This document shows positions 4,049 to 26,568 of a DNA stretch of 37,008 bases, in pieces. The stretch's first letter is position 1; each line of letters opens with the position of its first letter. The translations under genes were made by a program, and so were the position numbers. The stretch spans positions 17,151 through 54,158 of the forward strand of contig CAZHFX010000002.1 in assembly GCA_964531745.1 (NCBI GenBank). The letters run 5' to 3'. The stretch comes from an uncultured Gammaproteobacteria bacterium (GTDB taxonomy: Bacteria; Patescibacteriota; Patescibacteriia; Magasanikbacterales; GWA2-37-8). The notes under the pieces were generated by a model. It was not told where the DNA came from. It searched no databases and worked only from the letters and a program-made list of their open reading frames with translations.

Positions 4049-4843
4049 ATGTTTGAGGACCAACCAAAAAGCGCCGGCGGGCCGCCGGCAAATTTGCCCA
4101 CGGAACCGGTGGATATGTTCGCCGGAGTGGAGGAAAGCGCGGAGGTGGCGCCGCCAAAAATGCCCGATGCTTTGTCGTCCGGGCTTTTGAAACGAAAAAG
4201 TGCCGAAATACCAAAACCAGCGGCTGTTGCGCCTCTGCCATCCGTTGGAGAAGAGGCCACAGCGGTGCCGGCAACGTCATTTTCAGCCACTGCCCAGCCG
4301 ATATTAGGCAAAATATTATTAGTGATTTTGATTTTAGCGGCGCTCGGCGGCATCGGCTGGGGCGGCTGGTGGCTCTACGCCAATTACATAGCTAAAAAAG
4401 CACCGATCGTTCCGGCGATCACCGAAACACCGGCGCCGATTGTCCGGCCTCCGCCTCCGGCGGCGGCAACTCCCGCGGCGCCAGCCCCCGCGGCACCGCC
4501 AGCCAGCGATCAGCCGCTGGTTTCCGAGACCCCGACTTCTACTATTATGACGAAGATAAAAAATGACGCTATTTTATTTGGCGAACCGGTGGACAGTGAC
4601 AAGGACGGTCTTGACGATGTGCGAGAAAAAGAAATCGGCGCCGACCAGAACAACCCGGATACCGATGGCGACGGTTTGAACGACGGCGACGAGGTTTTGG
4701 CGTGGAAAACCAATCCGCTCAACTCGGATACCGATGGCGACAGCTATCTTGATGGCGCGGAGGTAAAGAATGGTTACAACCCGTTAGGGCGGGGCCGGCT
4801 TTTGTTGAGTCCCACTTCCACCGTCCCGGCCGGGACTCCATAA
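4049..4843 (+). CDS. Single-pass membrane protein with Pro/Ala linker and DxDxDG (TSP3-like) repeats
   Basis: One TM helix (ILLVILILAALGGIGWGGWWLY), Pro-rich linker, and DSDKDGLDD/DTDGDGLND/DTDGDSYLDGAEVKNGYNP repeats. Confidence 0.8.
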   Translation: MFEDQPKSAGGPPANLPTEPVDMFAGVEESAEVAPPKMPDALSSGLLKRKSAEIPKPAAVAPLPSVGEEATAVPATSFSATAQPILGKILLVILILAALGGIGWGGWWLYANYIAKKAPIVPAITETPAPIVRPPPPAAATPAAPAPAAPPASDQPLVSETPTSTIMTKIKNDAILFGEPVDSDKDGLDDVREKEIGADQNNPDTDGDGLNDGDEVLAWKTNPLNSDTDGDSYLDGAEVKNGYNPLGRGRLLLSPTSTVPAGTP

Positions 4844-4855
4844 TTTTTGTAAAAT

Positions 4856-5995
4856 ATGTTTGGTTTGGGCACGAAAAAAAATATCGAAGAAAAACCGCCA
4901 AGCGCCGTTCCTATTTCGGCGATGCCGGCGGAATTTTATGGCGGCGCCAACCCGGTGGTGACATTTAAGACGGTGGCGAAAGAAGTGTCGTCCGGCGGTT
5001 TGACGGCCGGTGAGAAAAAAGCGCTTGATCGGGCTACCGCGCCGGGTAGCGGCCAGCCGTTTCATCCGGCGAATCTTTTCACCAGCCGCCGTTTTATTGT
5101 CATTGCCGGCGTTGTTTTGCTGGCGCTTTTCGTCGGTGGCGCCAGTTGGTATTACCTCCGTCAGGCTAATTTGCCGACACCGGCTCCCGCGGCTCCACCA
5201 GTTGTCCCCGTCGCTCCAGTGGTAGAGGAACAGCCGATTGTCGCCACGACTACTGTTGAAACGACGGCTCCGCCGTTAGCGGAGGAAACCCCGACCACTA
5301 CTCCCGCCGTCGCCAGCGGTCTGATGGAGTTCCCATCTTTAATATTGGGTAGCGCGCCGGATTCCGATCGCGATGGCTTATCTGGTCCGGAAGAAGAATT
5401 ATTCAAAACCGACCCCCAAAATTCCGACACCGATGGCGATGTTTATTTTGATGGGAGCGAGGTTTACCATTTGTATAACCCGGTTGGCAAAGAGCCGCAA
5501 AAATTGATTGACTCTGGTCTGGTTAAAGAATTTGTTAATCCGGTTTTTAATTATCGGCTCTATTATCCGTCTTCATGGGCGGTTGGGAATGTTGATGAGA
5601 ATTATCGCGATATGCTTTTCAGTGCCCTGACCGGCGAGAATATTGAAGTGAAAGTATCCGGTATTGAGCCCGGCCAGACGATGGCCGATTGGTTTAATGT
5701 TTTTGCGCCTACTGAAAATATAAATACTCTGGCCAATTACGCGTCGGTGTTTAAGGAAACAGGTTTGCGCCGTCCCGATGGTTTGGTTTTTTATTTCACT
5801 CGTCCGAATCAAATTATAACGGCGGCGTATCACCCGGCGGTCGGCGAAAACATTGCGAATTACCGTTCGGTTATCGCTATGATGGCCCAGAGCTTCCGCT
5901 ATCCTGGCAACGGCTTTGCTTTACCGCCTCCCTCGCCGGCAGTGGTGTTTGATGTCGCCAGCACTCCCGCGACCTCAACTCAGCCGACGCTCTGA
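4856..5995 (+). CDS. Single-pass membrane protein with DxDxDG repeats and a C-terminal PsbP-like domain
   Basis: TM helix, Pro/Thr linker and DSDRDGL/DTDGDVYFDG..YNP repeats. FNYRLYYPSSW resembles the start of PsbP-like folds (weak call). Confidence 0.7.
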   Translation: MFGLGTKKNIEEKPPSAVPISAMPAEFYGGANPVVTFKTVAKEVSSGGLTAGEKKALDRATAPGSGQPFHPANLFTSRRFIVIAGVVLLALFVGGASWYYLRQANLPTPAPAAPPVVPVAPVVEEQPIVATTTVETTAPPLAEETPTTTPAVASGLMEFPSLILGSAPDSDRDGLSGPEEELFKTDPQNSDTDGDVYFDGSEVYHLYNPVGKEPQKLIDSGLVKEFVNPVFNYRLYYPSSWAVGNVDENYRDMLFSALTGENIEVKVSGIEPGQTMADWFNVFAPTENINTLANYASVFKETGLRRPDGLVFYFTRPNQIITAAYHPAVGENIANYRSVIAMMAQSFRYPGNGFALPPPSPAVVFDVASTPATSTQPTL

Positions 5996-6002
5996 CCGAG
6001 GT

Positions 6003-6446
6003 ATGCTGACGATTTTTTATCGGTCCACTGTTGTTTGTCCAATATCCAGAAGAGAAGTGGAAAGAATAGCCAGTTTAGCGGCTCGGCAGGAGAAAAAAAT
6101 AAAAGGTCAAATTGATATCACCGTGATGGGGGACGCGGCGATTAGGAGTTTGAATAAACGTTATCGCGGGAAAAACCAAACTACCGACGTGCTCTCATTC
6201 GCGTGGGGCGAGGATCAAACCATGCCCAGCGCGTATTTGGGGCAAGTCTATCTGTCATATCCGCAGATCAGGCGGCAAGCGCGCGCGTTTCAAGCGTCGG
6301 TCAAGGAAGAATTCGCGCGCATGCTGGTTCACGGTTTGTTGCATATAGCGGGGCATGACCATGTCCGGTCGCGGGAAGCCAAGCGCATGTTTTCCCTGCA
6401 GGAAAAAATTATCGCGCCAGCGCGATTATCTGTAAAGCGATTTTAG
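6003..6446 (+). CDS. ybeY: rRNA maturation endoribonuclease YbeY
   Basis: LNKRYRGKNQTTDVLSF and HGLLHIAGHDH metal-binding motifs. ATG at 6003 avoids overlap with the upstream gene. Confidence 0.93.
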   Translation: MLTIFYRSTVVCPISRREVERIASLAARQEKKIKGQIDITVMGDAAIRSLNKRYRGKNQTTDVLSFAWGEDQTMPSAYLGQVYLSYPQIRRQARAFQASVKEEFARMLVHGLLHIAGHDHVRSREAKRMFSLQEKIIAPARLSVKRF

Positions 6447-6454
6447 CAAACTTT

Positions 6455-6823
6455 ATGTTGTCATTACGCCGTTTGGCGCAAAGCTTCAAGGATGCCATTC
6501 GCGGTTTAGCCCAAGTGTTCCGGACGGAGCAGAATTTTCGTCTGCAAGTTATGGGCGCGGCGCTGGTTTTGGCGGCGATGGCGTATTTTCCTCTGCGCCA
6601 GTGGGAAATGGTTGTCATTTTTCTTCTTATCGTGATGGTTTTAACGATGGAGATTCTGAACACGGCCTTGGAGCGCTTTACCGATTTGCTCAAGCCGCGA
6701 TTGCATCACTACGTTGGCGCGATTAAAGATACTATGGCCGCCGCCGTGCTCGTTACGTCGCTCGGCGCGTTCATTATCGGGGTGATCATTATGAGTCCGT
6801 ACTTTATCAGTTTAGCCAGATAG
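6455..6823 (+). CDS. dgkA: Diacylglycerol/undecaprenol kinase (DgkA family)
   Basis: SFKDAIRGL..EQNFR, EILNTALE..D and KDTMAAAVL motifs, three TM helices, classic ybeY-dgkA synteny. Confidence 0.9.
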   Translation: MLSLRRLAQSFKDAIRGLAQVFRTEQNFRLQVMGAALVLAAMAYFPLRQWEMVVIFLLIVMVLTMEILNTALERFTDLLKPRLHHYVGAIKDTMAAAVLVTSLGAFIIGVIIMSPYFISLAR

Positions 6824-6839
6824 TGTATACTGCCAGTGT

Positions 6840-8111
6840 ATGAAAAAAGATTATTCCTCGCTGATCGCCGGTTTAGATATCGGGTCGTCCGCGATTCGGC
6901 TCGTAGTGGGCCAGCTCGCTTCTCCGGAAGAGGCGGAGAGCGAAGTTGAACTGCAAATTTTGGGCGCGGCCGAAGCGCCGTCGGAAGGCGTGCAAAAGGG
7001 CATCATCACCAGCATTGAAGATGTTGTTTCTTCCATATCCGCTTGTTTGGAGACGGCGGAGCGCATGGTGGGGGCGCCCATTAACAGTTTGTGGGTGGGA
7101 ATTTCCGGCCTTCACATTATTTCACAGAATAGCAAGGGAGTCGTGGCTGTTTCCAAAGCGGACAGCGAAATCAGCGAGGAAGATGTAACGCGGGCGATTG
7201 AGGCGGCGCGAGCTATCGCCACGCCGCTTAATTATGAAGTGTTGCATGTTTTGCCAAAGAATTTTGGCATTGACGGGCAGGGTACCGTTAAAGATCCGGT
7301 TGGCATGACCGGCATTCGCCTGGAGGTGGACGCGCAGATTATTCTCGGGTCGGCTTCGCAAATTAAAAATTTAACGAAAGCGGTTTATCGGACAGGGCAG
7401 GATATTGAAGATTTGGTTCTATCCATTCTCGCTACCGCCGAAGCGGTGGTAACGCCGCGGCAGAAGGAGATCGGCGTTTTAGTGGTGAATATCGGAGTGT
7501 CTACCACGAGTTTGGCGGTTTTTGAGGAAGGGGAAATTTTACATACGGCCATTATCCCGCTCGGTTCCGAACATATTACCAAAGATATCGCGTTAGGGCT
7601 TCGCACGTCTATTGATATTGCCGAAGCGGTAAAGCTTGAGCACGGCGATTGCGCGCCGGGCTTGGTATCCAAACGCGAAGAGGTTGATCTTTATGAGCTC
7701 GGCGCGCCGGAACATGAAATTGTGAAAAAACAATATGTGAGTGAAATCATTGAGGCGCGCGCGGAGGAGATTTTACAAAAAATTAATCAAGAGTTAACCC
7801 GGATAAAACGGAACGCTCTGCTTCCGGCCGGGGCGGTTTTGACCGGCGGCGGCGCCAAGCTAGCCGGTTTGGTGGAGCTGGCTAAAAAGCAATTGCGCCT
7901 TCCCGCCATTCTGGGCTATCCGCTCAATGTGGCGAGCGTTACTGACAAAGTAAATGATTTAGGCTTCGCCACCGCGGTTGGCTTGGTGAAGTGGGGAGGA
8001 GCCATGGAGCGGCGCGGCTATAGCGGACGGCGCGAAGAGAGAGGGCCGATGAAAAAAATAAATCGCGCCGGCGGTCAGCTTAAAAAATGGTTCAAAACGC
8101 TTATACCTTAA
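6840..8111 (+). CDS. ftsA: Cell division protein FtsA
   Basis: GLDIGSSAI, DPVGMTGIRLE and VLTGGGAKL actin-like ATPase motifs; lies directly upstream of ftsZ. Confidence 0.96.
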   Translation: MKKDYSSLIAGLDIGSSAIRLVVGQLASPEEAESEVELQILGAAEAPSEGVQKGIITSIEDVVSSISACLETAERMVGAPINSLWVGISGLHIISQNSKGVVAVSKADSEISEEDVTRAIEAARAIATPLNYEVLHVLPKNFGIDGQGTVKDPVGMTGIRLEVDAQIILGSASQIKNLTKAVYRTGQDIEDLVLSILATAEAVVTPRQKEIGVLVVNIGVSTTSLAVFEEGEILHTAIIPLGSEHITKDIALGLRTSIDIAEAVKLEHGDCAPGLVSKREEVDLYELGAPEHEIVKKQYVSEIIEARAEEILQKINQELTRIKRNALLPAGAVLTGGGAKLAGLVELAKKQLRLPAILGYPLNVASVTDKVNDLGFATAVGLVKWGGAMERRGYSGRREERGPMKKINRAGGQLKKWFKTLIP

Positions 8112-8119
8112 GCGTTTAG

Positions 8120-8175
8120 TTATACACATTCCTTAACAATCGCGCTTGACAGGGTATTATCTTGAACGATACACT
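8120..8175 (+). promoter_or_regulatory. ftsZ promoter (TTGACA-N18-TACACT) preceded by a DnaA box TTATACACA
   Basis: TTATACACA at 8120-8128 matches TTATNCACA; TTGACA at 8146-8151; TACACT at 8170-8175. Confidence 0.55.
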
Positions 8176-8253
8176 ATCTAGCGAAGAGGCGTTTCTTCGC
8201 TTATTTTATTATCAGGGGTTTGAACACAAAAATTATTCATCAATTTCACACTT

Positions 8254-9468
8254 ATGCCGCAGGTAAAACCAGAAATTGAAGCTTTTGCCAAAATTAAAGT
8301 GGTTGGCGTGGGCGGGAGCGGCGGCGCGGCCATCAACCGAATGATGGCGAATAAAATTCGCGGTGTTGATTTTATCGCCATGAATACCGATGTGCAGGCG
8401 CTCCACTACAACAGCGCGCCGCATAAAATTCATATTGGCAAAACAGTGACCAAAGGCCTCGGCGCCGGCATGGATCGGGAGGTCGGCCGCAAAGCGGCCG
8501 AGGAATCGCAAAATGAAATCCGCGAAGCTCTTAAGGAAACCGATATGGTGTTTATCACTTGCGGGCTGGGCGGAGGCACCGGTTCGGGGGCGGCGCCGAT
8601 TGTGGCCGAGGTGGCGAAAGAGCTGGGCGCTTTGACGGTGGCGGTGGTAACCAAGCCCTTTTCTTTTGAGGGGCCGCAACGCGGCTCTATCGCCGATAAA
8701 GCGTGGGAGGAGCTGGTAAAGAATGTGGATACTATTATTACTATCCCGAACGATCGGGTACTTCAGGTGATTGATAAAAAAACCACTTTGCTTGACGCGT
8801 TCAAAATTGTTGATGATATTTTACGTCAAGGCGTGCAAGGAATTTCCGAGTTGATCACCATCCCCGGGCTTATCAACGTTGATTTTGCCGACGTGAAAAC
8901 TATTATGCGCGACACCGGTTCAGCGCTGATGGGCATTGGCGTCGGCACCGGCGAGAGCCGGGCGGTGGAAGCCGCCAAAGCGGCCGTGGCCAGCCCTCTG
9001 CTGGAACTATCCATTGACGGCGCGCACGGCATTCTTTTCACCATCACCGGCGGTCCGGATTTGACCATGAACGAAGTAACCGACGCGGCCAAACTGATCA
9101 CCGGTTCAGCCGCGGCTGACGCCAAAATTATTTTTGGCGCCATTATTGATGAAAGCATGACCGGCAGTATGCGCATTAATGTGGTGGCCACCGGCTTTGA
9201 CGATCGCCGCCCGAGCACATTGAAAGAAGACACGGCGCCGGCGCAGAATTTCTTCTCCGGCGGCAAATATATGCCGAGCACGTTTTTGCGCAAAGCGCAG
9301 AAGGAAGAGGAAGAGGAAGAAAAAAAATTCAAGAATTTTACTCAACGGAATATTCCGGCCGCCGCGCCGAACCCGAGCGAAGCGAATAAATTAGCCAAAG
9401 ATCAAGATGCGGGTCTGGAAGAAGATCCGGAAATGCCGGCTTTCCTTCGTAAAAGAATGGGTCTCTAG
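8254..9468 (+). CDS. ftsZ: Cell division GTPase FtsZ
   Basis: GGGTGSG tubulin signature, NVDFAD, and C-terminal peptide PAFLRK. Confidence 0.99.
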   Translation: MPQVKPEIEAFAKIKVVGVGGSGGAAINRMMANKIRGVDFIAMNTDVQALHYNSAPHKIHIGKTVTKGLGAGMDREVGRKAAEESQNEIREALKETDMVFITCGLGGGTGSGAAPIVAEVAKELGALTVAVVTKPFSFEGPQRGSIADKAWEELVKNVDTIITIPNDRVLQVIDKKTTLLDAFKIVDDILRQGVQGISELITIPGLINVDFADVKTIMRDTGSALMGIGVGTGESRAVEAAKAAVASPLLELSIDGAHGILFTITGGPDLTMNEVTDAAKLITGSAAADAKIIFGAIIDESMTGSMRINVVATGFDDRRPSTLKEDTAPAQNFFSGGKYMPSTFLRKAQKEEEEEEKKFKNFTQRNIPAAAPNPSEANKLAKDQDAGLEEDPEMPAFLRKRMGL

Positions 9469-9495
9469 TGAAAATGCTAATTTTATTCTTTCTGT

Positions 9496-9957
9496 ATGCG
9501 CTGTCCAGTTTGCAACTATCGCGATGTCAGCGTTATAGATACTCGTCCGTTGGAGGATGATTTATCCGTCCGCCGGCGCCGGGAATGCCAGAAATGCCAC
9601 TATCGGTTTTCCACGGTGGAAGAAATTGAGCTGTTGGACGTCATTGTCGTGAAGAGAAACGGCGAACGGCAGAGTTATATGCGCGACAAAATAGAGGCCG
9701 GCATTCGGCGCTCGCTTACCAAGCGCCCTTTTACGCAGGATAAATTGCACCGGCTGTTTCACGCCATTGAGCGCGATATTCAAAAGAAACGGCGGCGGGA
9801 AATCGCGAGCAACGAGATCGGCGAAATCGTGATGAAACACCTGCATAGTTTTGATAAAATAGCTTATATTCGTTTCGCGAGCGTTTATCGCGACTTTAAA
9901 GACGTAAAGACGTTTGAAAAGGAGCTGAAGCGTCTTAGCCATAAACAAATTAAATAG
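9496..9957 (+). CDS. nrdR: Transcriptional repressor NrdR
   Basis: CPVC...RRRRECQKC..RFSTVE zinc ribbon, ATP-cone, and AYIRFASVYR. Confidence 0.97.
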   Translation: MRCPVCNYRDVSVIDTRPLEDDLSVRRRRECQKCHYRFSTVEEIELLDVIVVKRNGERQSYMRDKIEAGIRRSLTKRPFTQDKLHRLFHAIERDIQKKRRREIASNEIGEIVMKHLHSFDKIAYIRFASVYRDFKDVKTFEKELKRLSHKQIK

Positions 9958-9967
9958 CATTTATTTT

Positions 9968-10426
9968 ATGTTTAAACGCGCGGTTAAAACTCCGCCGGAA
10001 GATCAGAACGCCGTGAGCGGCGCGTCGGCGGGAGCGGCCGCCTCCGAAGCGGCGGAACGCGTTGAGACAGCCGCTCCGAAAGACGCGAGCCCGCTGGCGT
10101 TGCGCGATCTTTTGGAAAAAAATCTCAAATGGTCGCAAATTATTTACGAACAGAACCGGAGAATTAACAGCAAATTGTTGTGGGCGGCGGCGGCCAATTG
10201 GCTTCGGCTTCTAGTAATTATCGTGCCGCTTATTTGGGCTGTTTGGTATTTGCCGTCTATTCTGAAAGGGTTGCAAAATAAATATGGTCTGTTTTTAAAC
10301 GCGGCGGCCAAGGGTCAGCTGTCAAGCTCCTCGGTGAACAGCTTGCTTGATGTCTTGCCGATCAACGCGGTGGAGCGGGAACAACTCAAGGCGATGTTAC
10401 AGCCGTCCGGGACGGGTAAAAAATAA
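9968..10426 (+). CDS. Hypothetical single-pass membrane protein
   Basis: Fills the nrdR-pyk gap with tight spacing; short coiled coil followed by a TM helix. Confidence 0.7.
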   Translation: MFKRAVKTPPEDQNAVSGASAGAAASEAAERVETAAPKDASPLALRDLLEKNLKWSQIIYEQNRRINSKLLWAAAANWLRLLVIIVPLIWAVWYLPSILKGLQNKYGLFLNAAAKGQLSSSSVNSLLDVLPINAVEREQLKAMLQPSGTGKK

Positions 10427-10429
10427 GCT

Positions 10430-11866
10430 ATGTTTAAACACACGAAAATTGGCGCTACCGTCGGCCCGTCATGCGCCGACCAGCTGGTGCTGGAGAAAAT
10501 GGTCAAAGCCGGGATGAATTTTGCCCGTCTTAATTTTGCTCACGGCACGCACGAGAGCAACGGAGCGCTGCTCAAAACGATTCGCGCTGTAGAGGAAAAG
10601 ACCGGCGAGCCGATTGCCATTCTTCAAGATTTACAAGGGCCGCGTATTCGCATTGGCGTTATGCCCGATGATGGAGTGGCTATAAAAGATGGCGAAAGTG
10701 TTATTTTGAACACCGCTCTCACTGCCTACGCCGGCGGCGATTGGCCGGTTGATCATCCCGAGTTGCACCGTTTTATTAAACCGGGAGAGCGTATTCTTAT
10801 TGATGACGGCCGGGTGGAGTTGGAGGTGACAAATGTTACCGGCACGCAAGTGACCGGAAGTGCGACCCAAGGCGGCGTGGTAAAATCGCATAAAGGAATA
10901 AATTTGCCGGACAGCGCGCTCACGATTCCGGCTTTGAGTGAAAAAGATCGCTCAGATTTGCGATTTGCCGTGAAAAATGAAGTAGACATGGTCGGACTGT
11001 CTTTTGTCAGCAGTGCCAAAGATATTTTGGATGTTCGTTTTTTAATACAACAATATTTGAAAGAAGAAAATCTCACCCGTAAACAGCCGATTTTTATTAT
11101 CGCCAAAATTGAACGGCGGGTCGCGGTGGAGAATTTAAGTGAAATTTTAGATGTGGCCGACGGCATTATGGTGGCGCGCGGCGATTTGGGTCTAGAATTG
11201 CCGGCGGCGCAGGTGCCTTTGGTGCAAAAAAGAATTATTGATGCCGCGAACGCGTTGGCCAAGCCGGTGATTGTGGCCACCCAGATGCTCAATTCCATGC
11301 AGACCAGCCGCCGCCCCACGCGCGCGGAGGTGTCCGACGTGGCGAACGCTGTCATTGATCACGCCGACGCTCTGCTTTTGACCAACGAAACAGCAAGCGG
11401 GGAGTTCCCGGTTTTGGCGGTGGAAACCATGGCGGATATTGCCGTCACCACCGAGCGTTCAAGCTATGACGACACGGATTTGCCCATTCATCACAAAGGG
11501 ACGCCGTTGGATTCGGCTATCGCTGATATGTCGCGTCTGCTCGCCGATGAGCTGAATGCCAAGCTGATTTTAGCGGCGTCAATTTCCGGAGAAACTGGCC
11601 GGCTCATCAGCCATGTTCGGCCCCTTCTGCCGATACTGGTGGCTACCGCGACGCCGGCTTCGTGGCGACAGTTGAATCTTTCCTGGGGAGTGAAGCCGTT
11701 TATGATGTTGCCGTGCCAGTCTATTGAGGAGTTGGTGGAGCGTTCCATAAATTATATTAAACAGCAGAAGCTCGCGAAAAAAGGCGATACCATGATTATA
11801 GTGGCTGGCGAGCCGGTTGGCCAGGCGGGTCATGTCAATTTGGTGGAGGTCCGGGAGATAACATAA
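10430..11866 (+). CDS. pyk: Pyruvate kinase
   Basis: TKIGATVGP, DLQGPRIR, IIAKIE, DGIMVARGDLG, ATQML and PTRAEVSDVANA motifs. Confidence 0.98.
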   Translation: MFKHTKIGATVGPSCADQLVLEKMVKAGMNFARLNFAHGTHESNGALLKTIRAVEEKTGEPIAILQDLQGPRIRIGVMPDDGVAIKDGESVILNTALTAYAGGDWPVDHPELHRFIKPGERILIDDGRVELEVTNVTGTQVTGSATQGGVVKSHKGINLPDSALTIPALSEKDRSDLRFAVKNEVDMVGLSFVSSAKDILDVRFLIQQYLKEENLTRKQPIFIIAKIERRVAVENLSEILDVADGIMVARGDLGLELPAAQVPLVQKRIIDAANALAKPVIVATQMLNSMQTSRRPTRAEVSDVANAVIDHADALLLTNETASGEFPVLAVETMADIAVTTERSSYDDTDLPIHHKGTPLDSAIADMSRLLADELNAKLILAASISGETGRLISHVRPLLPILVATATPASWRQLNLSWGVKPFMMLPCQSIEELVERSINYIKQQKLAKKGDTMIIVAGEPVGQAGHVNLVEVREIT

Positions 11867-21030: not shown

Positions 21031-22245
21031 ATGCGGATATTGCAGATTAATAAATTTTTTTCCGTGCAAGGCGGTTCGGACACCGTTTTTTTTGAAACGA
21101 TTGAAGGGTTGCGCGGGCGCGGCCATACGGTCGTCGAGTTTTCTATGCGGCGGGAGGGGGACAGACCCTCGGCTTACGAAAAATATTTTGTCAGTCCGGT
21201 ATCCCTGCGCGCCGGGAGCCTTGCCGAACGTTGGCGCGCTGCGCGGCGTATTTTTTCTTCTTCCGAAGTTACCGCCAAACTCACTCAATTGGTGAAGGAC
21301 ACCCGGCCTGACGCGGCGCATGTGCACAATGCCTACCGCGAACTCTCGGCAAGCACATTTTTGACCTTGAAAAAACTGGGCGTGCCGATCGTTCATACGG
21401 TGCACGATATGTTTCCGCTATGCCCCAACCACAGTTTTATTTTAGGTGAAACTTTGGCCGAAGCCAAACTTAATCGGCTTTATAAATGTGTGATTAACAA
21501 ATGCGTCAATGGTTCGTTCACGCAGAGTCTAGCGGGCGCCGCCGAAGCCTATTATTACCGCGCCCGCGGCATTTGGAAAAAAGTTGATCGATTTATCGCG
21601 CCGAGCGAGTTCATGAAAGATAAGTTGATTCAGTATGGTTTTCCTGCCGAAAGAATTCGGAAAATAATGTATCCTGCCGCCACGGTGTTAAAAAATATCC
21701 CGCCGCTCGGCGACAAAATCGTGTATTTAAGCCGTCTGCATGTGGAGCGTGGTATCAGAGTGTTTATGCGCGCGGTGAAAGATTTGAAGCAGTACCGAGT
21801 GGTGGTAGCGGGGGATGGACCGGAAGCGGCGTGGGTAGACCAATTTATAAAAGATAATCGCCTCACTCACGTTGAGCGGCGCGGCTGGGTGAGCGGAGCC
21901 GGAAAAGAGGCGGCGCTGGCGGAAGCGCGCGCGGTGGTCGTCCCGGCGATTTTTTACGACCTCTGCTCGCTCACGATTCTGGAAGCATTGGCGCTAGGGC
22001 GGTTGGTGGTGGCAAGCGATCGAGGCGGGAATCCTGAGCTGGTAATTGATGGAAAAACTGGTTGGTTAGCTCGCCCGGAAGACCCGGCCGACCTTGCGCG
22101 GGCCATTCAGGAGGCCATGACAGCCCCGCAAAATCAGGTAGAGAGCATGGTTGCCGCAGGCAGGGATTTAGTGCGGAAAAACCATGATTTGGGCCGTTAT
22201 TTAGACAATGTAGAGGCGGTTTATGCCGAGGTAAAAATGGTCTAA
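21031..22245 (+). CDS. Glycosyltransferase family 4 (GT-B)
   Basis: MRILQINKF..GG, HTVHD, FIAPS, and ILEALALG..VVASDRGGNPELV.DG..G. Confidence 0.9.
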   Translation: MRILQINKFFSVQGGSDTVFFETIEGLRGRGHTVVEFSMRREGDRPSAYEKYFVSPVSLRAGSLAERWRAARRIFSSSEVTAKLTQLVKDTRPDAAHVHNAYRELSASTFLTLKKLGVPIVHTVHDMFPLCPNHSFILGETLAEAKLNRLYKCVINKCVNGSFTQSLAGAAEAYYYRARGIWKKVDRFIAPSEFMKDKLIQYGFPAERIRKIMYPAATVLKNIPPLGDKIVYLSRLHVERGIRVFMRAVKDLKQYRVVVAGDGPEAAWVDQFIKDNRLTHVERRGWVSGAGKEAALAEARAVVVPAIFYDLCSLTILEALALGRLVVASDRGGNPELVIDGKTGWLARPEDPADLARAIQEAMTAPQNQVESMVAAGRDLVRKNHDLGRYLDNVEAVYAEVKMV

Positions 22246-22276
22246 AATAGCGGGTGCTTGCGGGGTAGAATGACCC

Positions 22277-22321
22277 TGTGGATAACATTAATTTGACAGT
22301 TTTTAGTAAGATCGGTAGTCT
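22277..22321 (+). promoter_or_regulatory. Perfect DnaA box (reverse orientation) followed by sigma70 promoter TTGACA-N17-TAGTCT
   Basis: TGTGGATAA at 22277-22285; TTGACA at 22293-22298; TAGTCT at 22316-22321. Confidence 0.65.
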
Positions 22322-22338
22322 TATTATATTACACTACT

Positions 22339-22458
22339 ATGTCGTTAAATCACTCCAACAATCTTCGCTGGGATAAAAAGGCAAAGAGCGCCTTTACTTT
22401 GACTTTGGCGGTAATTGCGCGCCCGTGCGGGTTTTGGGGTGAATATAAACGAAGATAG
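22339..22458 (+). CDS. Putative 39-aa leader peptide (MSLNHSNNLRWDKKAKSAFTLTLAVIARPCGFWGEYKRR)
   Basis: Short ORF just after the promoter; its 3' end overlaps the predicted antiterminator stem. Confidence 0.5.
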   Translation: MSLNHSNNLRWDKKAKSAFTLTLAVIARPCGFWGEYKRR

Positions 22459-22513
22459 ATAATGGATAAATTTCGTTTATAAGAACCTCGAACCTAAACT
22501 CTCGGGGTTTTTT
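22429..22513 (+). terminator. Attenuator: intrinsic terminator with mutually exclusive antiterminator
   Basis: Terminator is GAACCTCGA (22483-91)/TCGGGGTTT (22502-10) plus a T-run. Antiterminator pairs 22429-40 with 22485-95 and TATAAACGAA (22444-53) with TTCGTTTATA (22472-81). Confidence 0.6.
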
Positions 22514-22520
22514 AATGAGT

Positions 22521-22569
22521 CCGCCAGACTAGCAAATTGCCTTTTTAAGGCGGTTTGCTAGTCTGGCGG
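22521..22569. repeat. 23-bp inverted repeat (REP-like CCGCC...GGCGG hairpin)
   Basis: CCGCCAGACTAGCAAATTGCCTT / AAGGCGGTTTGCTAGTCTGGCGG; the two deviations are both G-U compatible. Confidence 0.85.
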
Positions 22570-22644
22570 GAATGCCAGCGACAACCAGTCTCACTGTCGC
22601 AGAGGGCGGCGCTGACGATTGGTTTCCTCCAAGGAGGAAGTTAC

Positions 22645-23088
22645 ATGGAGAACGCGGTGGCGAGAAAACAGCAGGAGAAGCTGGTTGCAGTGCACCCGGA
22701 GCTCAAAAGGCACTACAAGCCGAGCGGGCGCCTGTCGCACTTTGACGGGTGCGAGGACGATCTGGTCGGCCGCGTGCAGACGGCGCTCCAGAGCGGCGCC
22801 CCCCATTGCCGCGGTAGGTTCCCCGGGAGTCTGATCGTGGAGATCGCCCCGCAGGGAGTGTACTGCAAAGTCGCACCGGAGGGGCGCACCCGCGAAGGCT
22901 ACGAGAAGCTGGAGGCCAGGCGCGCCGAGGCGGTGCTCCACACCAAGGAGCTCGTGGCGGAGCAGACCGCAAGGAGGAGCGGCGACAAGCGCCGGCGCCG
23001 TATCCGCCTGCTGGGTGACAACGTCCGGTACTTCCTGGTGGCGGTGCACGGCTTCTCCTCCGACCGCCAGCCCGGCCGCGACGCCTAG
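22645..23088 (+). CDS. GC-rich 147-aa hypothetical protein, possibly a divergent DUF3228-like protein
   Basis: Strong AAGGAGG SD at 22631-37 and strong GC3 bias. The pattern SHFDG..DDL...G..PGSLIV.I.P.G...K..A...VL....L...FLVAVH resembles DUF3228 proteins (from recall). Confidence 0.7.
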   Translation: MENAVARKQQEKLVAVHPELKRHYKPSGRLSHFDGCEDDLVGRVQTALQSGAPHCRGRFPGSLIVEIAPQGVYCKVAPEGRTREGYEKLEARRAEAVLHTKELVAEQTARRSGDKRRRRIRLLGDNVRYFLVAVHGFSSDRQPGRDA

Positions 23089-23183
23089 TCCGCGCGCTCG
23101 CGTTGCTCTACCTGACCCGGAGACGGGTGAATGCACAGTCGGCTGTGACAAACAGCGGACAATGCTCACCCTCTCCGGCAATC

Positions 23184-23248
23184 TAGTCTCTCCCGCTGAT
23201 AGCGGGACTGATGAGTCCACAACTGTTTTGACTAAGGACGAAAGACTA
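23184..23248 (+). ncRNA. Type III hammerhead ribozyme; predicted cleavage after C23190 (CUC)
   Basis: Stem III TAGTC (23184-88)/GACTA (23244-48); UH at 23189-90; stem I TCCCGCT/AGCGGGA; core CTGATGA (23208-14); stem II GTCC/GGAC; GAAA (23240-43). All core nucleotides are present. Confidence 0.92.
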
Positions 23249-23252
23249 CAAC

Positions 23253-23288
23253 AAAAAACTCTCTCAACGTATGCGGGAGAGTTTTTTT
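23253..23288 (+). terminator. Intrinsic terminator (possibly bidirectional)
   Basis: AAAAAACTCTCTC-9nt-GGGAGAGTTTTTTT. Confidence 0.8.
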
Positions 23289-23310
23289 ATGCTATATTAT
23301 AGCGAAGCTT

Positions 23311-24216
23311 ATGTGGTTAACCAGTGCTGTTAGCGGCTACATTTGTTTAGCCGTGGTCACCATTTTAGATAAATATATTTTGTCGGAGCGAAAAGTGCGG
23401 CCGATTTTGTATGTTTTTTATTCCACGATTTTTGTCGTTCCCATTTGGTTTCTCTTGCCTTTTGGAGTAAAAATTTTTGCTTCGCCGGCGCAGTGGCTTT
23501 CAGCGTTAGCGGCCGGGCTCGGTTTCGCTCTTACTCTCTGGGCCCTCTACCGTGCGGTGGCCGAGAGCGAGGCGAGCCATATCGGTCCGTTTATCGGCGC
23601 GGTGGTACCGAGTTTTGTTTTAGTATTTGGCCGGATTTTTTTGAATGAACAGATTACTGTCCGGCAGGAGGCGGCGATAGCACTGCTTATTCTCGGCTCG
23701 CTTATCATTTCTTTTGAAAATAGTCCGCGCCACCATGGTTGGCACCGAGGGTTTTGGTGGGGGGCGGTGGCGGGTTTTTTTGCTGCCATCTATCAGGTTT
23801 TGTCAAAATATATCTATGGTTTGGTAGGTTTTTACAGCGGTTTTGTGTGGATTTGGGCTAGTGTCGGGCTGTGCGGCGTGTTTTTATTGACCCACCCAGT
23901 TGTTCGCGAGGTATTATGGCACCCAGATCGCTCACAGAGCCGCAGGCGGCCTATGACAGCGCGTATGGTGGTGTTGGCCGATAAGTTGCTTGGCGCGGTC
24001 GGGGTGGCGCTCGTGCAATACGCGGTGGCGCTCGGGAGCGTGTCAGTCGTTAATGCTTTAGCTGGAGTACAATATGGATTTTTGGTAATTCTTGTCGCGG
24101 CGCTGTCAAAGTTCGCTCCGGGCGTGTTTCGTGAAACGTACGCGGCGGGAGAGATCGTTCAAGAGTTGGCGGCGGTCGTGTTGATTGCGTCCGGTCTCGT
24201 TTTAGTGCTTTTATGA
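23311..24216 (+). CDS. EamA/DMT family transporter
   Basis: About 10 TM helices with two-repeat DMT architecture (DK..L, EAS...P, FLNEQ). Confidence 0.8.
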   Translation: MWLTSAVSGYICLAVVTILDKYILSERKVRPILYVFYSTIFVVPIWFLLPFGVKIFASPAQWLSALAAGLGFALTLWALYRAVAESEASHIGPFIGAVVPSFVLVFGRIFLNEQITVRQEAAIALLILGSLIISFENSPRHHGWHRGFWWGAVAGFFAAIYQVLSKYIYGLVGFYSGFVWIWASVGLCGVFLLTHPVVREVLWHPDRSQSRRRPMTARMVVLADKLLGAVGVALVQYAVALGSVSVVNALAGVQYGFLVILVAALSKFAPGVFRETYAAGEIVQELAAVVLIASGLVLVLL

Positions 24217-25269: not shown

Positions 25270-25346
25270 GCACGCCTAGCTCAGTTGGTTAGAGCACCTC
25301 GTTTACACCGAGGGGGTCAGGGGTTCGAATCCCTTGGCGTGCACCA
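25270..25346 (+). tRNA. tRNA-Val (anticodon TAC), CCA encoded
   Basis: Acceptor stem GCACGCC/GGCGTGC, D-loop AGTTGGTTA, anticodon arm CCTCG-TTTACAC-CGAGG, GTTCGAATC T-loop, 3' ACCA. Confidence 0.97.
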
Positions 25347-25416
25347 GCAAGGAAATTGCTTCGTAAAAAGCAGTTTTTTATTTGTCTTTTTTTATGGTAT
25401 ACTTCTCATTGAGAAT

Positions 25417-26568
25417 ATGCTTCACGATGAACGCCCGATAGTTTTGCATCAGGGAGTTTATAAAAAAACCGCCACAGTAGGAGAGGCGGTGTTTATGATT
25501 ACCGGCATGACCATCGGCGCTGGCATTTTAGGCCTTCCGTACGCTGTTTCTCGCGCTGGCCTTTTGCCCGGAGTATTTTTAATTTTTGTTTTAGGGATTA
25601 TAATGTTCTCTATCAATTTAATGATTGGCAGAGTAGCGACACTGGCCGGAGATAATTTACAGTTGCCGGGGTTGGCGGGTAAGTATTTAGGCGGGTGGGC
25701 GAAAGGAGTTCTTTCCATTACGGTTATTTTTAGTTCATACGGAGTTTTGTTAGCGTATTTGGTTGGCGAGGGGGCGGCCTTGAGCGCTTTGTTCGGCGGC
25801 AGCGCGCTTGGGTGGAGCGTAGTTTTTTGGTCAGCCGGCAGTTTTTTAATATGGCTTGGCCTGCAACGCATCCGATATGTGGAGAAATTTTTCAGTCTAG
25901 CGGTGATAATTATTATTGCAGTGCTATCGGCCGGGCTTCTGCCCTACTTCCGCCCAGCGGCGTTTACGGAAGTGCATTGGCCGTCATTTTTCTTTCCCAT
26001 GGGAGTTATTTTATTTGCTTTGCACGCCACGCCCGCTATCGCGGAAGCGCGAGCGCTTTTACCAGGGCGTCCCGCGGCATTTCGGCGCGCGCTGGTTATC
26101 GGAACAATAATTCCGATAGCCGTTTATATTCTTTTCACGGTAGCGGTGGTTGGTTTGAGCGGCTTATCCACTACGCCCGTCGCTACAGTTGGAATCGGCC
26201 AAGCCTTTAGCCCGATTTTTTTGATATTAGCGAATATCTTTGCCGTGCTCGCCATGAGCACCGGTTTTATGGGTTTGGGCACGGCACTTAAAGAAACGCT
26301 GATGTGGGATTATCGCGTTCCATCCGGCGCGGCGCAATTTTTGGTTATCAGCGTTCCGTTGGCTCTGTTTTTGCTGGGGGCGCGGCATTTTGTGGGTATC
26401 TTGAATGTGGTGGGCGGACTTTTTATTGCCGTTGAATCCATTATTATGATTTTGACGTATTTTAGAGCGACGGGGCAGGAAAAGCGAACGTGGTTTTTGC
26501 TCTTGCCATTGTTGGCATTTTTTAGTATACTGGCGATATTCAGCCTCTACGGAGCGCTGGAAAAGTAG
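25417..26568 (+). CDS. Aromatic amino acid permease (Mtr/TyrP, HAAAP family)
   Basis: ITGMTIGAGILGLPY motif and about 11 TM helices. Start moved to ATG 25417 because the longer ORF overlaps the tRNA; extended -10 TGGTATACT at 25395-25403. Confidence 0.85.
   Translation: MLHDERPIVLHQGVYKKTATVGEAVFMITGMTIGAGILGLPYAVSRAGLLPGVFLIFVLGIIMFSINLMIGRVATLAGDNLQLPGLAGKYLGGWAKGVLSITVIFSSYGVLLAYLVGEGAALSALFGGSALGWSVVFWSAGSFLIWLGLQRIRYVEKFFSLAVIIIIAVLSAGLLPYFRPAAFTEVHWPSFFFPMGVILFALHATPAIAEARALLPGRPAAFRRALVIGTIIPIAVYILFTVAVVGLSGLSTTPVATVGIGQAFSPIFLILANIFAVLAMSTGFMGLGTALKETLMWDYRVPSGAAQFLVISVPLALFLLGARHFVGILNVVGGLFIAVESIIMILTYFRATGQEKRTWFLLLPLLAFFSILAIFSLYGALEK

Follow-up and report, generated by a model that had tools for sequence, protein, structure and literature searches.

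The window analyzed here is a stretch of 37,008 nucleotides (G000:C2:17151-54158) from genome G000 (842,508 bases in 53 contigs, 95% complete, 49% G+C), and its subject is a 1-kb cassette at positions 22277–23288, between a group 1/4 glycosyltransferase (GT4) gene (21031–22245) and an EamA transporter gene (23311–24216). On the plus strand the cassette holds a DnaA-box-like motif and a promoter, a short leader open reading frame (ORF) with a terminator, a series of hairpins in the 5′ untranslated region (UTR), a gene rich in G+C at third codon positions (GC3) that encodes protein P0002, a 3′ UTR hairpin, a hammerhead ribozyme, and a final terminator. The leader has ∼39% G+C and the ORF 70%, and beyond the hammerhead the content returns to ∼40%. 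An earlier note, made from the sequence alone, had listed these parts as a single self-contained unit, and direct reading of the sequence placed each of them where it had been reported. The cassette is interpreted here as one conserved transcription unit, in which the 3′ hairpin and the hammerhead probably form and protect mRNA 3′ ends and insulate the gene.

The hammerhead (23183–23249, plus strand) has three helices arranged around the core, stems I and II being closed by loops and stem III open, as in type III ribozymes, with the cut predicted between 23190 and 23191. Rfam Hammerhead_3 (RF00008) detects it at 30.9 bits (E 3e-4 in 1.5 kb), with a match at every core position. In an alignment of seven copies from five genomes, the core CUGAUGA ... 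GAAA, the A15.1–U16.1 pair, and the cleavage-site nucleotide C17 are invariant in all seven, and 98.2% of cells are paired. Seven of the 16 pairs have changed on both sides (5/6 in stem III, 2/6 in stem I); the resulting covariation score was reached by none of 500 shuffles, and sliding the partners against each other as a control lowered pairing to 30–54% (at most 53.6%). R1, a covariance model derived from these seven aligned copies, scores the window copy at 81.1 bits (E 4e-20) and finds two copies in G000, the second of which (C32:9196-9250) lies at the very end of its contig, directly upstream of a promoter and gene, and has A-U rather than C-G as the sixth pair of stem I. As judged from these covariation patterns, the window hammerhead is a genuine member of the type III family, which would be expected to cleave itself in the cell. 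It is preceded by a 3′ UTR hairpin (23107–23168, plus strand) made of a 13-pair outer stem and an inner stem-loop, which differs by two compensatory pairs from its counterpart in G001, a genome of the same genus. An intrinsic terminator with an 8-pair stem, a 9-nt loop, and a U-run follows (23258–23288, plus strand), with one compensatory pair relative to G001.

Of 100 genomes of the family, 24 have hammerheads recognized by R1, at 41 places in all and with up to five per genome; of 151 genomes sampled evenly across the phylum, 14 have them, G000 included. A pattern made of stem I and the core matches 21 stretches in metagenome contigs and has no exact match in 2.9 million viral contigs. Within this subfamily stem I is conserved (UCCCGA/UCGGGA, loop U.A.A), and the stem II loop ranges from 9 to ∼60 nt. 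The surroundings of the hammerheads follow a clear rule on the upstream side. Of 42 distinct hammerheads recognized, 38 had enough flanking sequence for G+C content to be compared; the 400 nt upstream averaged 56.2% G+C against 46.6% for the locus and were richer at 37/38 sites (median difference 9.2 points), while the 200 nt downstream averaged 40.7% and were poorer than the locus at 28/38 sites. A later run recognized 47 distinct hammerheads, 42 of them with flanks long enough for folding against mononucleotide shuffles; the 90 nt before stem III gave a mean z of −4.0, with z below −2 at 34/42 sites; control windows taken 300 nt further upstream gave a mean z of −1.19 and z below −2 at 10/42. 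Together, the composition and the folding indicate that the hammerhead has one constant partner, a stable hairpin with which a G+C-enriched gene ends. The genes themselves are diverse, encoding secreted, membrane, and small proteins, mostly with raised GC3, and what lies downstream varies among AT-rich spacers, promoters, terminators, and convergent genes.

Tandem units of gene plus hammerhead occur in G071, G073, and G012. The arrays of G073 (L052, G073:C2:250000-266000, at 5300–11300) and G071 (L053, G071:C1:78000-89828, at 4600–6900) occupy one syntenic site between the same core genes but hold different small genes, several of them for membrane proteins; each array has three units on one strand, every unit ending in a hammerhead, and one G073 unit comprises two genes. 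As a separate observation, hammerheads are often found a few hundred bases or less from the end of a contig (G000:C32:9196-9250, G111:C2:439, G115:C63:218, G081:C2:747, G258:C11:43), as do those of several metagenome contigs, and assemblies seem to break at or near hammerhead units.

At the 5′ end of the unit lies a leader ORF of 39 codons (22339–22458, plus strand), which includes segment 1 (∼22350–22358) and segment 2 (UUUUGGGGUG, 22432–22441) and is followed by a terminator (22481–22513, plus strand) consisting of an 11-pair hairpin and a U-run, the 5′ arm of which doubles as antiterminator segment 3. The window leader folds into the terminator at −11.6 kcal/mol and into the antiterminator at −15.9 kcal/mol. 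Leaders of this kind were seen in 12 genomes of at least seven genera, six of them aligned and folded and six more (G032, G078, G007, G079, G082, and G073) judged by eye. In all six aligned genomes a terminator hairpin stands before a U-run (−10.7 to −16.9 kcal/mol by the folding script), a segment with the heptamer G.GUGAA pairs with the terminator 5′ arm more strongly than the terminator itself (−14.7 to −28.5 kcal/mol), and segment 1, at leader codons 4–7, pairs with that same segment 2. Invariant across the six are TGTGGATAA, TTGAC, TAnnnT, the start codon, and the heptamer. Outside these positions segments 2, 3, and 4 change together in each of the six leaders, reading AUCUCGGG, CCCGAGAU, and AUCUCGGG in G093 and GCUCAGAG, CCCUGAGC, and GCUCAGG in G004. 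Since the G004 heptamer holds the stop codon, G.GUGAA is kept as RNA and not as peptide. The leader ORF measures 30–39 codons in the six aligned genomes and 25–39 across all 12, and Asn, His, and Tyr codons are frequent at positions 4–9; in G082 the leader contains the run F-F-F-Y-F and weakly matches Rfam Phe_leader (32.6 bits, E 0.051). On the evidence of its conserved pairings, the leader is a four-segment, trp-like attenuator predicted to be ribosome-mediated, and the terminator/antiterminator interpretation proposed earlier is strengthened by the coordinated changes of three segments in six of six genomes. The sequence GTTCTTTACAA follows the leader terminator in G001 (L006 1712–1726) and in G032, G078, G007, and G079 (L100–L103), with a variant in L079, and is missing from the window's cassette; it was considered as a second promoter and dropped for lack of a −10 hexamer at the right distance.

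The leader is preceded by a predicted promoter on the plus strand, TTGACA (22293–22298) and TAGTCT (22316–22321) separated by 17 nt. A consensus promoter scan did not list it at 22293–22321, because its −10 hexamer matches at only 3/6 positions, and the promoter call accordingly rests on conservation in other genomes, where TTGAC and the −10 frame TAnnnT are kept at the same spacing in all six aligned leaders. Seven nucleotides 5′ of the −35 hexamer lies the 9-mer TGTGGATAA (22277–22285, plus strand), invariant in 6/6 aligned leaders and reversed in orientation in the G082 leader. It is a perfect match to the DnaA-box 9-mer TTATCCACA, either strand counted, and G000 contains 31 copies against 6.6 expected. 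The combination of TGTGGATAA[CT] with TTGAC-N16-18-TAnnnT 2–7 nt downstream was found at 66 places, spread over 44 of the 100 family genomes, and the reversed control pattern has no match; places in G000 include C13:4290-4335, C8:20062, and C12:400, and promoters of hrcA-like genes are among those found. A motif this widespread is a general promoter element of the family and not a mark of the cassette, so that the DnaA box and promoter described in the earlier note are both present and conserved without being specific to this unit. With hrcA-like genes among its places, it resembles a regulon operator. At the promoter it is a candidate DnaA site and may equally belong to another factor.

Between the leader terminator and the gene, the 5′ UTR is strongly structured, positions 22328–22650 folding at −131.5 kcal/mol (z −8.4). 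A long hairpin of 20–24 pairs with a 7-nt loop (22521–22569, plus strand) shows one compensatory change relative to G001 and several G-U pairs that work only in plus-strand RNA, and long hairpins stand at the equivalent place in G064, G093, G078, and G073. Two further hairpins follow (22584–22639, plus strand), the second of which (22624–22639) holds the Shine-Dalgarno sequence GGAGGA within a UUCCUC/GAGGAA pairing; hairpins holding the Shine-Dalgarno sequence also precede both G064 genes and are not present in G001. In G064 the same ∼100-nt 5′ UTR module stands before each of two GC-rich genes (L077 1380–1497 and 2020–2123), running from a hairpin with loop GUAAGAGAGAUU through AACGACCUAGUC and another hairpin to CCCUGAGGAGGG, and G062 also carries its first part. 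A kinship between an arm of the 5′ hairpin (CUAGUCU) and stem III of the hammerhead was considered and dropped, the likeness not being kept in G001.

The gene for P0002 (22645–23088, plus strand; 147 amino acids, ∼70% G+C) has G+C fractions of 0.71, 0.46, and 0.885 at codon positions 1, 2, and 3, against a median GC3 of 0.56 and a 90th percentile of 0.63 among G000 ORFs of at least 150 amino acids. It codes for protein. In a collection of 5.8 billion proteins it has one relative at 98% identity, full-length and on another contig, and two at 56–58% (best local alignment); among 1.8 billion representatives there were 13 matches, one of them spurious. The 2569-residue P0012 was rejected as a relative, being made of CARDB repeats. 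The family shares the motifs HP..KR..S.LSHF[DE]G, GSL.VEI.P.G, KP.A..AEVVLH, and VAVHG. Pfam has no family for P0002 (E up to 0.1) or for six relatives (E up to 0.01), PHROGs gave no match for P0002 and its relatives, a profile search of solved structures reached only E ∼0.8–1, ESM Atlas gave scores of at most 0.83, and a metagenome scan for the protein family found no related loci. A genome scan yielded one weak partial match in an Acidobacteriaceae metagenome-assembled genome.

Structure prediction gave a more definite result. A model of P0002 from 15 sequences (pLDDT 79.5, pTM 0.74) matched 4fbd and 2pd0 with a Foldseek probability of 1.0, and 2pd0_A in VIA with Z 10.9 and a root-mean-square deviation of 3.7 over 129 residues; the family profile also reaches the full DUF3228 protein of G115 (E 1e-5), which itself matches Pfam at E 2.4e-62. 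P0002 is thus, as modeled, a short relative with the fold of DUF3228 (PF11539), to which the apicomplexan proteins 2pd0 and 4fbd belong. DUF3228 members differ in measuring ∼195–205 amino acids and in having a Pfam match; no literature was found under the name DUF3228. Most of ranks 2–31 in VIA are RelE, BrnT, CdiA-CT, and colicin D ribonuclease (RNase) toxins at Z 3.3–5.7, possibly reflecting a common arrangement only, with other RNases and a few unrelated chains among them, and the likeness of the model to RNase toxins is taken as a lead only.

High GC3 is a property of the gene family, in which it ranges from 0.67 to 0.93, and it reaches 1.00 over 195 codons in the G115 DUF3228 gene (L081, G115:C55, 1369–1956, minus strand), at a locus of 47% G+C. 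The earlier note had called the window gene foreign. Its composition is indeed deviant, yet the P0002 family stands behind the same leader in 5/5 cases from five genera, and the gene is not a recent insert. Elsewhere in G000, about 15–18 real ORFs have GC3 of 0.78–0.98, out of 22 listed at GC3 of at least 0.78, some of which are opposite-strand shadows. They include C1:52712-53620, C3:44185-45189, C15:19845-21071, C39:2719-3111, and C18:3808-5964; several resemble nucleoside or pentose salvage enzymes, and many lie near contig ends.

Whether the parts belong together was judged from related genomes. The family is taken to be CPR-like on account of the small size of G000 (0.84 Mb at 95% completeness), the sizes of its relatives (0.6–2.2 Mb as rounded values, nearly all at most 1.3 Mb), and sources in groundwater. 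At the same GT4–EamA site, G001 carries the box, promoter, 39-codon leader ORF, terminator, and long hairpin. Beyond these come a GC3-rich ORF and the 3′ hairpin, then a hammerhead whose stem II has a large insert, and lastly the terminator. Its leader and 3′ region are 79–82% identical to those of the window, with compensatory changes. The G001 ORF between them is an unrelated-looking orphan, alone in the 5.8-billion-protein collection and not found by the P0002 family profile (E up to 1); hhalign aligns it to the P0002 family over the HFDG and KP.A motifs with 43% probability and E 2.5e-4. By profile, the P0002 family occurs in six of 100 family genomes, counting G000 and the DUF3228 gene of G115. 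All five P0002-type genes (G000, G064, G093, G073, and G082) lie behind such a leader, two of them with a hammerhead, and the G093 gene shares the GT4–EamA site. G064 has the leader, 5′ hairpins, a P0002-family gene, a GC3-rich gene for a small Cys-rich protein, the 3′ hairpin, and a hammerhead. The Cys-rich gene stands alone behind a leader in G062, with a hammerhead, and in G004, without one. The two families are linked by protein P0015, in which the Cys-rich domain is fused to a P0002-like one. Behind the leaders of genera g7 and g32 stand other small ORFs, detected by neither profile. In all, four of the 12 leader units have a hammerhead (G000, G001, G064, and G062). The proposal that the cassette is a single unit is therefore borne out, its parts co-occurring in G001 (all parts, same site), G064, and G062, contrary to the condition that the earlier note had named for its refutation. 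The placement of the hammerhead in a leader-controlled unit holds for those four and is not specific to such units, and comparison of the GT4–EamA interval, suggested earlier, showed it occupied in G001 and G093, by an unrelated-looking ORF in G001 and by the same family in G093.

The segment is chromosomal, and is neither an assembly chimera nor a mobile island. Logan contigs from DNA runs of two studies cover 22042–22827 (GT4, leader, and ORF) and 22821–23900 (ORF, hammerhead, and EamA), bridging both G+C boundaries. Positions 22828–22837 are spanned by no single Logan contig, the contigs of both DNA runs stopping near there. Because contigs from two studies cross the junctions, the segment is not chimeric, and the same architecture in relatives agrees with this, so the concern about a chimera raised in the earlier note can be laid aside. 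At position 22750, inside the GC-rich ORF, both DNA runs have C where the window has T, and P0003, the 98% identical protein, differs from P0002 at a few residues; both differences point to strain variation.

The flanking genes are housekeeping genes, encoding pyruvate kinase, SHMT, thiamine synthesis, a radical SAM enzyme, a methyltransferase, and GT4 upstream and EamA, a glycoside hydrolase, an amino-acid permease, SAM synthetase, a DUF11 protein, a sigma factor, and a DUF5667 protein downstream. No integrase, transposase, or reverse transcriptase was found within ∼12 kb of the cassette among the 15 neighboring proteins scanned. The EamA start lies 23 nt past the final terminator. Further along, a tRNA (25270–25343, 69.1 bits) overlaps the start of a listed 427-amino-acid ORF (25285–26568); the permease domain of that ORF begins near residue 62–65, which puts its true start further downstream.

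From this anatomy the following sequence of events is proposed. Transcription would start at the sigma-70-like promoter, under a DnaA-box-like operator just upstream of −35, and the trp-type attenuator would decide whether it continues, through competition between pairing of segments 1 and 2 and pairing of segment 2 with segment 3, the 5′ arm of the terminator. Early stalling of a ribosome on the leader ORF would leave segment 2 free to form the antiterminator and allow read-through; if the leader is fully translated, or not translated at all, the terminator would form. The read-through RNA would contain the long 5′ hairpins, the GC3-rich gene, the stable 3′ hairpin, the type III hammerhead, and the terminator. 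Hammerhead cleavage yields a 2′,3′-cyclic phosphate and a 5′-OH end, and stem-loops at a 3′ end hinder 3′ exonucleases. A cut after C23190 would leave an mRNA ending 22 nt past the 13-pair, G+C-rich hairpin with a 2′,3′-cyclic phosphate, and would release a piece with the ribozyme and terminator and a 5′-OH end. The hairpin and hammerhead would together be a device added to some GC-rich genes of the lineage.

Several observations weigh against this reading. The window hammerhead scores below the Rfam gathering threshold (30.9 vs 48.5 bits); its long stem II loop and short stem I differ from the seed, and the G064 hammerhead likewise reaches 41.8 bits with Rfam (below 48.5) and 48 bits with R1. 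Hammerheads are absent from eight of the 12 leader units, among them G093, G004, G073, and G082. Rfam found no known ribozyme in 13 flanks downstream of other GC3-rich genes of G000, nor in a GC-rich island at the end of contig C11. A terminator-like site lies within 110 nt of only 8/42 hammerheads under a strict rule, which also missed the terminator of the window itself because its loop has 9 nt. The hammerhead sites counted are mutually related, so that the counts overstate their independence. In the leader, no run of one amino acid was found except in G082, no Shine-Dalgarno sequence is visible before the leader ORF, and that ORF begins only ∼10 nt from the predicted transcription start. 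None of the sequencing runs listed as holding the segment is recorded as RNA, and two runs labeled metatranscriptomic, which are probably DNA, provide a single 194-nt contig (22915–23108) without transcript ends. Finally, the cut would remove a terminator hairpin that is itself 3′-protective, so stabilization is not the only way in which the arrangement can be read.

In a rather unlikely alternative the hammerhead limits expression, either because loss of the terminator hairpin and an exposed 3′ tail hasten decay or because the ribozyme is itself regulated, cutting slowly or conditionally and so adjusting output. Mammalian Clec2 genes, which carry hammerheads in their 3′ UTRs, would be its parallel. 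Its position between the stop codon and an intrinsic terminator suits such a role, and the variation of the stem II loop, from 9 to ∼60 nt, leaves room for control; a very stable hairpin before the cut in most members, however, fits protection of an end better than its exposure, and a core that is fully consensus leads one to expect fast constitutive cutting. That ribozymes in 3′ UTRs can influence expression is stated in the available part of one review (PMC6765202). Less probable, and indeed doubtful, is that the interval between leader and hammerhead serves for exchange of cargo genes, the RNA modules acting as recombination flanks or the units moving by way of an RNA intermediate with ribozymes at its ends. 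The orphan ORF of G001, flanked by a leader and 3′ UTR with 79–82% identity to those of the window, the other small ORFs behind leaders in g7 and g32, the different genes at one site in the G071 and G073 arrays, and the frequent position of hammerheads at contig ends are all consistent with exchange, and frequent gene conversion could account for raised GC3. Against this, the P0002 family occupies the same GT4–EamA site in two genera (G000 and G093), the hhalign match of the G001 ORF means that fast divergence would explain that ORF equally well, the neighboring proteins scanned over ∼12 kb include no integrase, transposase, or reverse transcriptase, and the viral contigs have no match to the stem I and core pattern. 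The landing pad for exchangeable cargo that had been suggested earlier is therefore weakly supported, with the orphan ORF of G001 and the other ORFs of g7 and g32 on one side and no recombinase nearby on the other.

A further reading would shift attention to the other side of the cut, the released 3′ piece (∼100 nt, 5′-OH) being a functional product or the cut insulating EamA from read-through. The proximity of the EamA start, 23 nt past the terminator, and the second G000 hammerhead on C32, directly upstream of a promoter and gene, would agree with it, but the downstream context of the hammerheads is not conserved and their conserved partner is the upstream hairpin, which makes this reading very unlikely. 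An artefact, whether a chance resemblance to a hammerhead or a chimera with the gene of a high-GC organism, would account for the sub-threshold Rfam score, the sharp jump in G+C, and the break of Logan contigs near 22828–22837; set against the covariation of the hammerhead, the repetition of the architecture in G001, G064, and G062, the bridging of both G+C boundaries, and the full-length 98% identical protein on another contig, it is extremely improbable and counts as refuted. Formation and protection of mRNA 3′ ends by hairpin and hammerhead remains the preferred reading. A more ambitious and quite speculative version, which is considered improbable, extends it to the protein: a nuclease-resistant mRNA (3′ hairpin and hammerhead, AU-poor coding sequence, and 5′ hairpins) would be made only upon stalling in the leader, and its DUF3228 product with RelE-like fold, in some cases accompanied by a small Cys-rich protein or joined to it, would target RNA or the ribosome in translation stress, an activity that its own message would be built to evade. 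In that case the hammerhead would serve a definite purpose in the cell, the making of a protected 3′ end that does not depend on the terminator.

Bacterial hammerheads have been proposed to process transcripts (available parts of PMC3088659 and PMC6765202), and the role of genome-encoded bacterial hammerheads is described as an open question in the available part of PMC6765202. For that question the cassette offers a compact case, with a single promoter, attenuator, gene, and ribozyme, and with relatives that have or lack the hammerhead. Since natural units with and without a hammerhead exist and the surroundings follow a clear rule (upstream the structured 3′ UTR of G+C-enriched genes, downstream AT-rich sequence), effects of the ribozyme on 3′ ends and mRNA life are testable by reporters. 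The locus also adds a trp-type attenuator in very small genomes and a widespread operator-like motif fused to promoters, and the extreme GC3 of the gene family, which persists across genera in genomes of 41–55% G+C, calls for its own explanation. In the literature searched, neither this hammerhead subfamily in the phylum nor its context rule was found, nor a hammerhead in a single-gene attenuator unit with natural hammerhead-free counterparts, nor the persistent extreme GC3 of the gene families behind this leader. No literature report of hammerheads in Candidate Phyla Radiation/Patescibacteria was found in a search of main texts; supplements, which that search did not cover, may list similar metagenome copies. 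The architecture had been put forward as new. No like unit was found in the literature searched; each component is of a known kind, and the control envisaged at each level is a prediction from the parts.

Compared with known systems, the leader shares with the trp, his, and pheA leaders (Phe_leader, RF01859) a short ORF, mutually exclusive 1:2/3:4 and 2:3 pairings, and an intrinsic terminator. It differs from amino-acid leaders in that most examples here are without a run of a single codon, have no visible Shine-Dalgarno sequence, and match Rfam weakly, and whereas amino-acid leaders control biosynthetic operons, this one precedes a small gene without assigned function. With integron cassettes the units have in common a structured element after each variable small gene and arrays at a fixed site. 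No integron integrase was found among the 15 neighboring proteins scanned, the search having been confined to these rather than the whole genome, and among the papers listed in a search on both subjects no title joins hammerhead ribozymes and integrons. The two systems differ in the element itself, since integrons use attC recombination sites and the element here is a catalytic RNA with a conserved ribozyme core. The published bacterial type III hammerheads, as far as the available text describes them (PMC3088659), have the same core, three stems, and open stem III, and like this family flank single varying genes, some of them in tandem. They lie mostly beside integrases and prophages (same source, same extent), whereas those studied here lie among chromosomal housekeeping genes and have no viral matches. 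Relative to RF00008, this subfamily is set apart by its sub-threshold scores (30.9 and 41.8 bits), by its conserved stem I, and by its place after the structured 3′ UTR of G+C-enriched genes.

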